Shown here: in pieces, positions 1 to 17,530 of the stretch
Position numbering within the stretch: the stretch's first letter is position 1
Layout: every line of letters starts with the position of its first letter
Assembly: GCF_003334305.1 (NCBI RefSeq)
Contig: NZ_QOWS01000010.1
Strand: one strand, 5' to 3'
DNA: 64,000 nt
From: Escherichia coli
Lineage (GTDB): Bacteria > Pseudomonadota > Gammaproteobacteria > Enterobacterales > Enterobacteriaceae
Notes under the pieces: model-generated
The model's input: the letters and a program-made list of their open reading frames with translations, nothing else
The model's database searches: none
What the model was told of the DNA's origin: nothing
Made by a program: the position numbers and the translations under genes

Positions 1-1888
1 CCGACGCAGGGTCTGAATATTATTATCCGCAATAATGGACTCGCGCGCCTGCGCAAGTTTTTCTTCGTATATCGCCTGACGCCACTCCAGCGGCGTACGC
101 ACCGCGGGATTATCATCTTCAACGATAGTCAGTTCAACCGTTGAACCTTTTAACGTGCTCAACGCTTCAGCCAGTTTTTGCTGTGCACCGCGGTTGTTCA
201 AATGCCGCTGAGAGGAGCGCAAATGCAGACATACTGCGTTGTCGCTCTCCTCTTTCCAGGCATTTAAGGCCACCTGTTCGACCAGTTTTGGTAGCGAAAG
301 TTGACTCACCTGTGCCGCCCACGCGTCGCGCTCAATGGCTTCTGCCGCCAGCTTCGCCGCCAGTTCCGGCGTTTTTTCATGTTCCAGCGCTTTTTTCAGC
401 GCCTTCGGCGTGGCGACCACTTCTTTTTGCTGCATCACTGGAGTGGTAGCCTTCCAGCGATACGCTTCTTTTTTGGCTGGCGCTTTTTCCAGCGCCGATG
501 GCACCGGACGCGCCTGAACGCGATCGGTGACCGAAGCCAGTCTTTCCAGCGCAGCGTTATTCACCGGCCGCGCGCGGGTAGCGGCTGCCGGTTCACTCTT
601 TTTTGCTTTGGTTGCTCCCTGCACGCGCTGCAACTGCTGGCGCGCCGCCAGCACCTGGCTGGTGGTTTCCGGGAGCGGTACAGTCGGTGCCTGCTGCGGC
701 GCTGATTGCGGTTGCGGCGGCACCTGGGTTGGCGTCATTACTGCCGTTGGCGCGACGGGCGCAAAGGACTGGCGTGGCACTTCTGGCTCAGGCAGAGGCA
801 TACGTGGATGGAACGCCAGCGCGCGCAGCAGCGTCATCTCAACGCCCATGCGGCGGTCCGGCGCATACGGTAATTCTTTGCGACCAATCAACAGCGTCTG
901 ATAGTAAAGCTGAATATCCGTCGGCGGTATGGTGCGCGCCAGTTCACGCATCCGCAGCTCAATGGCGGCCATGTCGTTGCCAAGTGCAGCAGGCGAAAGT
1001 TGTACCATCGCAATACGATGCAACAGGCCGAGCATTTCCACCAGCAACGCTTCCCACTCGATACCACGGGCAGCGGCTTCATTAATCAGCGCCATTACGC
1101 GCTCGCCGTTGGCCTCGACCATCGCTTCAACCAGCGACAGCGCCTGATCGTCGTCAAGCGTACCCAGCATCGCACTGACTGCCTGGGTTGAAACCTGGCC
1201 GTCACCGCTGGCAATCGCCTGGTCGGTCAGACTTAAGGCATCTCGCAGGCTGCCTTCAGCGGCGCGCGCCAGCAATTGCAACGCCCGCGGCTCGTGAGCG
1301 ATATGTTCTTCGTTGAGGATGTGCTCAAGTTGATGGCGAATTTGCTCGACATCCAGCGCCTTGAGATGAAATTGCAAACAGCGCGACAAAATCGTCACCG
1401 GCAATTTCTGTGGATCGGTCGTCGCCAGCAGAAACTTAACGTGCTCCGGCGGCTCTTCAAGGGTTTTTAACAGTGCGTTAAAGCTGTGGCGCGACAGCAT
1501 ATGCACTTCGTCGATCAGATAAACTTTGAAACGACCACGCGCCGGAGCGTACTGGACGTTATCCAGCAGGTCGCGGGTATCTTCAACTTTGGTGCGCGAG
1601 GCGGCGTCGATTTCAATCAGATCGACAAAGCGCCCCTGCTCGATTTCACGACAGTTATCGCACACGCCGCACGGCGTCGCGGTAATGCCGGTTTCGCAGT
1701 TTAGCCCCTTCGCCAGCAGTCGGGCGATAGAGGTTTTTCCGACGCCACGGGTACCGGAAAAAAGATAAGCATGATGAATACGCCCTAACGACAAGCCGTT
1801 CGCCAGTGCGGTCAGCACATGTTCCTGGCCGACGACGTCAGCAAAGGTTTGTGGGCGCCATTTTCGGGCTAAGACCTGATAACTCATT
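1..1888 (-). CDS. dnaX: DNA polymerase III tau/gamma subunit, C-terminal end cut by window edge
   Basis: Reverse complement of 1862-1888 encodes MSYQVLARK, the DnaX N-terminus as I recall it; frame stays open to the window start; ~14 C-terminal codons missing. Not in the ORF track because no stop is present. Confidence 0.9.
563..620 (-). promoter_or_regulatory. dnaX: dnaX programmed -1 ribosomal frameshift cassette (upstream AGGGAG, slippery A AAA AAG, downstream stem-loop)
   Basis: Minus-strand reading: AGGGAG (615-620), AAAAAAG (598-604), -1 frame UGA immediately after, then GC-rich stem-loop CCGGCAGCCGC...GCGCGGCCGG (563-590). Matches the established gamma-subunit frameshift architecture. 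Confidence 0.85.
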
Positions 1889-2015
1889 GGCAGGCTCTGA
1901 AACGCTGGAAGGTGGATTCACGAAGGGGTAATGCTAACACAGCCCCGTCAGAACGGCGAGGCTGAATGCACATCTTGTGCTGTCCGTAGCGTGGGCAGCA
2001 CAAGACTGGCGATAA

Positions 2016-2567
2016 TTAATGGCCCGGGAACGGGACAAGGCTGTAGCTGGTAATGCCCTGTTTTTCGAGACGCTGTTCGCCGCCGAGATCGAACAGGTTG
2101 ATAATGAACGCAGCGTCAGCCACTTCACCACCCAGACGACGGATCAGTTTAACGGTCGCTTCGATAGTGCCGCCGGTTGCCAGCAGATCGTCCACCACCA
2201 GAACTTTGTCGCCCGGTTTGATGGCATCAACGTGGATCTCCAGCTGATCGGTGCCGTATTCCAGGTCGTAAGTTTCACTGATGGTTTCACGCGGCAGTTT
2301 GCCCGGTTTACGGACCGGTACAAAGCCAACGCCCAGACCCAGAGCTACCGGAGCGCCAAACAAGAAGCCACGCGCTTCGGTGCCGACAACTTTGGTAATG
2401 CCCGCATTTTTGTAACGCTCAACCAGCAAGTCGATGCTGAGAGCGTAAGCTTTCGGGTCTTCCAGTAAGCTGGTGACATCGCGGAAAAGAATGCCGGGTT
2501 TTGGGTAGTCCTGAATGCTTTTGATGCTATTTTTGAGATACTCAAGCTGCTGTGCAGTCGCGGTCAT
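2016..2567 (-). CDS. apt: adenine phosphoribosyltransferase
   Basis: 183-aa product starting [16 protein letters not shown] at internal ATG 2567; the track ORF is N-terminally extended. Confidence 0.93.
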
Positions 2568-3922: not shown

Positions 3923-4024
3923 GCCTGATGCGCTACGCTTATCAGGCCTACACCGCTCCTGCAATACATTGAATTCTTGCGGTTTCGTAGGCCGGATAAG
4001 GCGGTCACGCCGCATCCGGCATGA
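3923..4024. repeat. REP/BIME cluster (two palindromic units)
   Basis: gcctgatgcgctacgcttatcaggcctaca and gtaggccggataaggcggtcacgccgcatccggca are typical E. coli REP palindromes. Confidence 0.8.
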
Positions 4025-17416: not shown

Positions 17417-17530
17417 GGGTGGGGGCCCTGCCAGCTACATCCCGGCACACGCGTCATCTGCCTTGGCTGCTTCCTTCCGGACCTGACCTGGTAAACAGAG
17501 TAGCGTTGCGGGAGAACCAACAGAGCCCCC
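17417..17530 (-). ncRNA. ffs: 4.5S RNA (signal recognition particle RNA)
   Basis: Reverse complement reads GGGGGCTCTGTTGGTTCTCCCGCAACGCTACTCTGTTTACCAGGTCAGGTCCGGAAGGAAGCAGCCAAGGCAGATGACGCGTGTGCCGGGATGTAGCTGGCAGGGCCCCCACCC, the 114-nt 4.5S RNA as I recall it. Confidence 0.93.

Follow-up and report, generated by a model that had tools for sequence, protein, structure and literature searches.

The dnaX site of Escherichia coli has been the standard model of −1 ribosomal frameshifting since 1990. The primary reports are said to be those of Tsuchihashi and Kornberg (1990), Flower and McHenry (1990) and Blinkowa and Walker (1990), the first two of which reportedly assigned E. coli gamma, with its C-terminal Glu, to frameshifting; the Shine–Dalgarno (SD) element and the hairpin were reportedly the subjects of Larsen et al. 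in 1994 and 1997, respectively. [quoted passage not shown] The natural dnaX shift site, A_AAA_AAG, shifts with particular ease, since the one tRNA-Lys of E. coli (UUU anticodon, modified U34), which decodes both AAA and AAG, pairs better with AAA (PMC5009743). The upstream SD is a major 5′ stimulator (PMC5009743; its stimulator role is also described in PMC5389563), and the dnaX stem comprises 11 bp (PMC5009743). In vitro, a dnaX construct gave 84% frameshifting, which decreased to 50% when the SD was mutated, to 20% when the hairpin was deleted and to 2% when the heptamer was changed to G_AAG_AAG; the exact timing of the slip is still debated (PMC5389563).

Tau and a shorter gamma are likewise obtained from a single gene with Thermus thermophilus dnaX, by transcriptional slippage, and with Caulobacter crescentus dnaX, by proteolysis (PMC5009743). 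An internal SD:anti-SD duplex also acts as a 5′ frameshift stimulator in IS911 and the IS3 family and in prfB (RF2) (PMC5009743). The prfB shift is, however, to +1 with a short SD spacing, whereas that of E. coli dnaX is to −1, and IS911 joins two ORFs and uses a three-way junction, whereas the −1 shift of dnaX truncates the protein.

The window, that is, the whole stretch of 64,000 nucleotides analysed here, holds a site of the E. coli dnaX type on its minus strand. An earlier note, made from the sequence, had reported the three parts of the tau/gamma frameshift signal on this strand; all three were found at the positions given there, and its range of 563–620 has exactly the first base of AGGGAG at one end and the last paired stem base at the other. 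The features of the locus are as follows.

1–1887, minus strand: dnaX zero-frame ORF (tau), from open translation, PDB alignment, the E. coli E2865 annotation and Pfam
593–1887, minus strand: gamma coding range (zero frame to Lys430, −1 slip, GAG, TGA)
615–620, minus strand: internal Shine–Dalgarno-like element AGGGAG, a 5′ stimulator according to the literature, with 10 nt between it and the heptamer
598–604, minus strand: slippery heptamer A_AAA_AAG in X_XXY_YYZ phase, codons 429–430 (Lys429–Lys430)
593–595, minus strand: −1 frame stop UGA, with one GAG (Glu) codon before it
563–592, minus strand: 3′ stimulatory hairpin, 11 bp, GC-rich, from the Rfam structure, the ViennaRNA minimum free energy (MFE) fold and covariation
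559–623, minus strand: match to RF00382 (DnaX ribosomal frameshifting element), model positions 1–65 of 65

Minus-strand reading of window positions 1–2400 placed the dnaX start codon ATG at 1887–1885, with the gene beginning MSYQVLARKWRPQTF, and translation met no stop across 629 codons down to window position 1. Tau comprises 643 codons, of which 629 lie in the window and the final 14, together with the stop, lie beyond position 1. Residues 1–629 of the translated ORF aligned to residues 1–629 of the 643-aa PDB tau chain 8gj0_B, and the ORF is annotated as dnaX in E. coli E2865. Pfam analysis of the translated ORF gave the following modules, in the order required for a DnaX clamp-loader subunit.

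Residues 20–178: AAA+ ATPase module (PF13177)
Residues 182–230: lid (PF22608)
Residues 232–358: domain III (PF12169)
Residues 417–498: tau domain IV, DnaB-binding (PF12168)
Residues 500–629: tau domain V, alpha-binding (PF12170)

Translation in the zero frame to Lys430 (AAG, 600–598), a −1 slip at 604–598 and subsequent reading of GAG (598–596) and TGA (595–593) gave a predicted gamma of 431 aa, consisting of the 430 residues common with tau and one Glu, with the C-terminus ...ATKAKKE; Glu431 is encoded in the −1 frame only. The known length of gamma is 431 aa. The PDB contains an E. coli dnaX chain, 8giy_B, of the same length as the predicted product, and also the classic gamma-complex structures, e.g., 1JR3. 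The UGA had been described in the earlier note as immediate; the heptamer and the −1 frame UGA are indeed present, but GAG is decoded before termination. Since the shift occurs at codon 430, past domain III and 13 residues inside tau domain IV as delimited by Pfam, the resulting product would retain the whole clamp-loader part and lack the helicase and polymerase contacts.

The upstream AGGGAG (620–615) is separated from the heptamer by the 10-nt spacer CAACCAAAGC (614–605, minus strand), and beyond the heptamer come AGUGA and then the GC-rich inverted repeat. The heptamer's first A lies 1283 nt from the ATG, at codon position 3, which gives the X_XXY_YYZ phase for tandem −1 slippage. The heptamer is an invariant part of the Rfam model RF00382 and is located about two-thirds into dnaX (codons 429–430 of 643). 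The composite AGGGAG-N10-AAAAAAG was found a single time in the 64-kb window and never in 100 shuffles, whereas bare AAAAAAG was frequent (22 sites in the window vs 14.7 expected). Two more AAAAAAG sequences were found in dnaX downstream of the real shift site, at 474–468 and 396–390 (minus strand); both start at codon position 1 (AAA AAA G), which is the wrong phase, and they are tau-specific coding sequence only. To our knowledge, this locus is not one where tRNA-Lys genes would be expected.

The inverted repeat at 592–563 reads ACCGGC-A-GCCGC-UACCC-GCG-C-GC-G-GCCGGU and begins 5–6 nt past the heptamer. The lower stem is formed by 592–587 with 568–563 (ACCGGC/GCCGGU), and the upper stem by 585–584 with 571–570 and by 583–581 with 575–573, with the loop at 580–576 and with A586, C572 and G569 unpaired. 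The MFE structure from ViennaRNA was identical to the Rfam consensus structure, with folding energies of −19.1 to −19.7 kcal/mol for the downstream part and −23.6 kcal/mol for 71 nt. Compared with GC-matched dinucleotide shuffles these energies were unremarkable (z = −1.56 and −1.67), and folding energy by itself is therefore no proof of the hairpin. The case for it as a real structure is made by the Rfam structure model, by covariation and by published mutagenesis. The GC-rich stem-loop that had been claimed downstream of the heptamer is thus present at 592–563, with the RF00382 structure and with covariation in relatives.

The match to RF00382 scored 96.8 bits with the covariance model, against a gathering score of 35 (E = 5.8e-20), i.e., 62 bits over the threshold. 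No sequence difference that would disrupt the heptamer or the stem-loop was found, all 65 model positions being matched. A segment of 2100 nt spanning apt and dnaX showed 100% identity to many complete E. coli chromosomes, so that the alignment to annotated dnaX proposed as a check in the earlier note gave complete identity. RefSeq record NZ_AP018808.1 annotates the corresponding stretch as dnaX, with the product name "DNA polymerase III subunit gamma/tau" and one CDS listed; its neighbours are apt, ybaN and priC to one side and ybaB, recR and htpG to the other. A feature named "DnaX frameshifting element" is placed in this record at exactly the corresponding 65 nt. The full-length RF00382 match, the coinciding RefSeq feature and the 431-aa product bear out the reading of the site as a tau/gamma frameshift signal. 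The accompanying remark that gene finders miss such a feature holds for the CDS, only one being listed in RefSeq, but not for the element, which the NCBI pipeline flags as a feature.

The cassette was also compared with that of E. coli K-12 dnaX. Sequence (65 model positions), spacing, phase, the −1 stop after Glu and the host gene are the same, as are the flanking genes apt, ybaN and priC, and no difference is detectable, apart from the loss of the last 14 tau codons at the window edge. The whole window was colinear with the chromosome NZ_AP018808.1 at 99.2–99.98% identity and, on this alignment, is an ordinary E. coli chromosomal segment.

Several other features of the window were recorded. 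The sRNA sraA (35161–35256, plus strand; Rfam, 106.7 bits) and the 4.5S/SRP RNA ffs (17426–17522, minus strand; Rfam, 68.1 bits) were found, both of which are expected at this E. coli locus. At 3945–3962, between mscK and rsmS, the window has an empty site, where E. coli E2865 carries an IS621 (IS110-like) insertion of about 1.3 kb. The yajO–dxs intergenic spacer (57973–57978) differs from that of E2865 by a 130-bp indel, the window being without the extra sequence; this may represent a difference in a REP-type element. Between yajR and cyoE (47281–49235) there are three ORFs, named after the E2865 annotation.

47281–47658 and 47642–48184, plus strand: DUF1778 protein and GNAT acetyltransferase, overlapping by 17 nt, a toxin–antitoxin-like pair
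48240–49235, minus strand: TPR protein (E2865 annotation)

This accessory insert is presumably absent from K-12 at this position.

A match to the 2.1-kb apt–dnaX region was present in all but one of 5426 complete E. coli genomes, i.e., in 5425. The 71-nt element was at least 99% identical in 5373 of these 5425 genomes, and in 2291 of them the surrounding 2.1 kb was at 95–99% identity. Divergence of at least 1% predicts a mismatch within 71 nt for at least half of the 2291 genomes, and 52 genomes have one. Because this number is far below the expectation from the divergence of the 2.1 kb, we infer stronger constraint on the 71-nt element than on the sequence around it, in a set of genomes that are not independent of one another. 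In addition, two complete E. coli assemblies have dnaX on a replicon that bears the label "plasmid", and one of the 5426 complete genomes was without any match to the region; assembly or labelling oddities are the likely cause in all three cases.

Relatives of the cassette were retrieved by the pattern AGGGAG-N10-AAAAAAGAGTGA with one genome per species, which gave at least 120 loci. Because SD, heptamer and GAGUGA are all prescribed by the pattern, conservation can be tested with these sequences for the hairpin only. Among the matches listed, 58 distinct sequences had an enterobacterial dnaX context, from genera including Citrobacter, Enterobacter, Kluyvera, Pluralibacter, Kosakonia, Buttiauxella, Pantoea, Erwinia, Mixta and Serratia. 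Fifty-seven of these 58 listed variants fold into a CCGGC/GCCGG-based hairpin with energies of −17.7 to −30.4 kcal/mol, located mostly 5–6 nt, and in a few cases 4 nt, past the heptamer. The other Enterobacterales cassettes resemble that of E. coli in having a hairpin on the same base and at the same distance, the likeness in SD, heptamer and GAG-UGA being fixed by the pattern.

Covariation was computed on an alignment of 32 distinct Enterobacterales sequences taken from the matches listed, in which the position of the hairpin was unchanged. In this alignment 86–90% of the cells were paired, as compared with 25–54% when the 3′ partners were slid by 1–3 columns; for the Rfam structure the values were 86% and 28–53%. 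Double changes occurred at five pairs, and the observed covariation score was reached by none of 500 shuffles. At the closing pair 592/563, 19 sequences have A-U and 12 have G-C, and the pair 588/567 changes from G-C to A-U in Mixta; these two are the clearest compensatory changes.

A single upper-stem structure common to all Enterobacterales was considered and rejected in favor of two lineage-specific registers. With the E. coli register, 18–19 of the 32 sequences were unpaired at two upper pairs, and with the alternative register 12–15 of the 32 were unpaired, so that the pairs common to all are the lower six and the first two of the upper stem only. In Escherichia and Citrobacter the upper stem is GCCGC...GCG-C-GC with a bulged C, whereas in Enterobacter and Pantoea it is a continuous GCGC/GCGC with a loop of 3–8 nt.

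Two of the enterobacterial-type loci deserve a separate description. In the dnaX of Candidatus Pantoea persica, the remaining one of the 58 variants, the usual GCCGG 3′ arm is absent and a different hairpin is formed (−22.5 kcal/mol, 5 nt past the heptamer); the structure in this locus (L052) has so been replaced, not lost. A Citrobacter-type dnaX cassette was found on a 799-kb contig labelled Chryseobacterium sp. 18061 (L065) and is almost identical to that of Citrobacter sp. 18056 from the same study (L062); the former assembly is probably mislabelled or contaminated.

The matches listed also included the Collinsella locus L034 and about 45 further Collinsella loci (e.g., L002, L003 and L012), with an identical AGGGAG-N10-AAAAAAGAGTGA. 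In L034 (8439–9800, minus strand) the pattern lies at the extreme 5′ end of an rpoD-like sigma-factor gene beside dnaG, where the sequence reads ATG AAG GGA GAA TCT GTG CCA AAA AAG AGT GAG. Here a −1 frame UGA accompanies a heptamer in slippery phase; no downstream hairpin was found at this site (−7.4 kcal/mol, z = +1.31). As a second dnaX-like cassette the Collinsella loci were rejected, given that they lie 5′-terminally in an rpoD-like gene and have no hairpin. The AGGGAG of these loci may be the initiation SD of a GTG start.

Other origins of gamma were weighed against these data. That RNA polymerase slips on the A run during transcription, the route described for T. thermophilus dnaX (PMC5009743), is very unlikely as the source of gamma at this locus. 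An A run is present, and stops are close to the site in both alternative frames (E* in the −1 frame, and a stop after 11 codons in the +1 frame), but the run consists of only six A's (CAAAAAAG) as compared with about nine A or T for bacterial transcriptional slippage (PMC5009743). Slippage, moreover, would need neither a conserved phased hairpin nor an SD at fixed spacing, both of which are ribosome-directed signals, and in vitro translation of defined mRNAs yields the shift (PMC5389563).

Gamma could also arise by proteolytic cleavage of tau, as in C. crescentus, with the motif at the shift site being incidental, and this we regard as extremely improbable. The route exists in another bacterium (PMC5009743), but the combination of motifs is not expected by chance, as seen from the 100 shuffles without an occurrence; the motif is nearly invariant in the 5425 E. 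coli genomes, and the hairpin covaries in relatives. The literature, too, assigns E. coli gamma to frameshifting, and its C-terminal Glu is not encoded in the zero frame (PMC5009743). With its six-A run and its ribosome-directed SD and hairpin, the locus differs in mechanism from the dnaX genes of both T. thermophilus and C. crescentus. That three short motifs should have come together by chance and without function, as might be argued from the abundance of the bare heptamer, from a hairpin energy that is ordinary for GC-rich sequence and from the same 28-nt pattern arising by chance or convergence in unrelated genes such as Collinsella rpoD, has a negligible probability, being opposed by the correct codon phase and excluded by the RF00382 match, the shuffles, the conservation in E. 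coli and the covariation.

No evidence opposing the canonical dnaX frameshift reading was found in this analysis. The anatomy and phase of the signal, the RF00382 match, the 100% identity to annotated dnaX, the conservation and the covariation make it practically certain that the site is the canonical E. coli dnaX programmed −1 ribosomal frameshift cassette. In such a cassette, ribosomes translating dnaX would arrive at A_AAA_AAG with two tRNA-Lys in the P and A sites, while the GC-rich hairpin, 5–6 nt downstream, would stand at the mRNA entrance and hinder translocation, and AGGGAG, 10 nt upstream, would pair with the anti-Shine–Dalgarno end of 16S rRNA. Of the ribosomes, about half would then re-pair one base back (AAA AAG to AAA AAA), read GAG and stop at UGA. 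These shifted ribosomes would produce gamma of 431 aa, with domains I–III and 13 residues of domain IV, and the unshifted ones tau of 643 aa, which would have in addition domain IV, for binding DnaB, and domain V, for binding Pol III alpha. In this scheme the efficiency of about 50%, the roles of the elements and the timing of the slip are taken from the literature, whereas sequence, phase, spacing, structure and conservation are from the present analysis.

The upper half of the hairpin has at least two mutually exclusive registers in the sequences compared, and lineages could conceivably, although this seems rather unlikely, tune their tau:gamma ratio through hairpin architecture. This idea provides nothing new on the window itself and is only a mildly new, comparative angle.

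The feature had been recorded in the earlier note as well-known biology and is, in agreement with this, already known and identical to the reference, adding no new biology. Its value is one of correct annotation only: a plain ORF caller gives one dnaX product at this locus and the cell makes two, namely tau, by which the clamp loader is joined to polymerase and DnaB helicase, and gamma, which is without those contacts.
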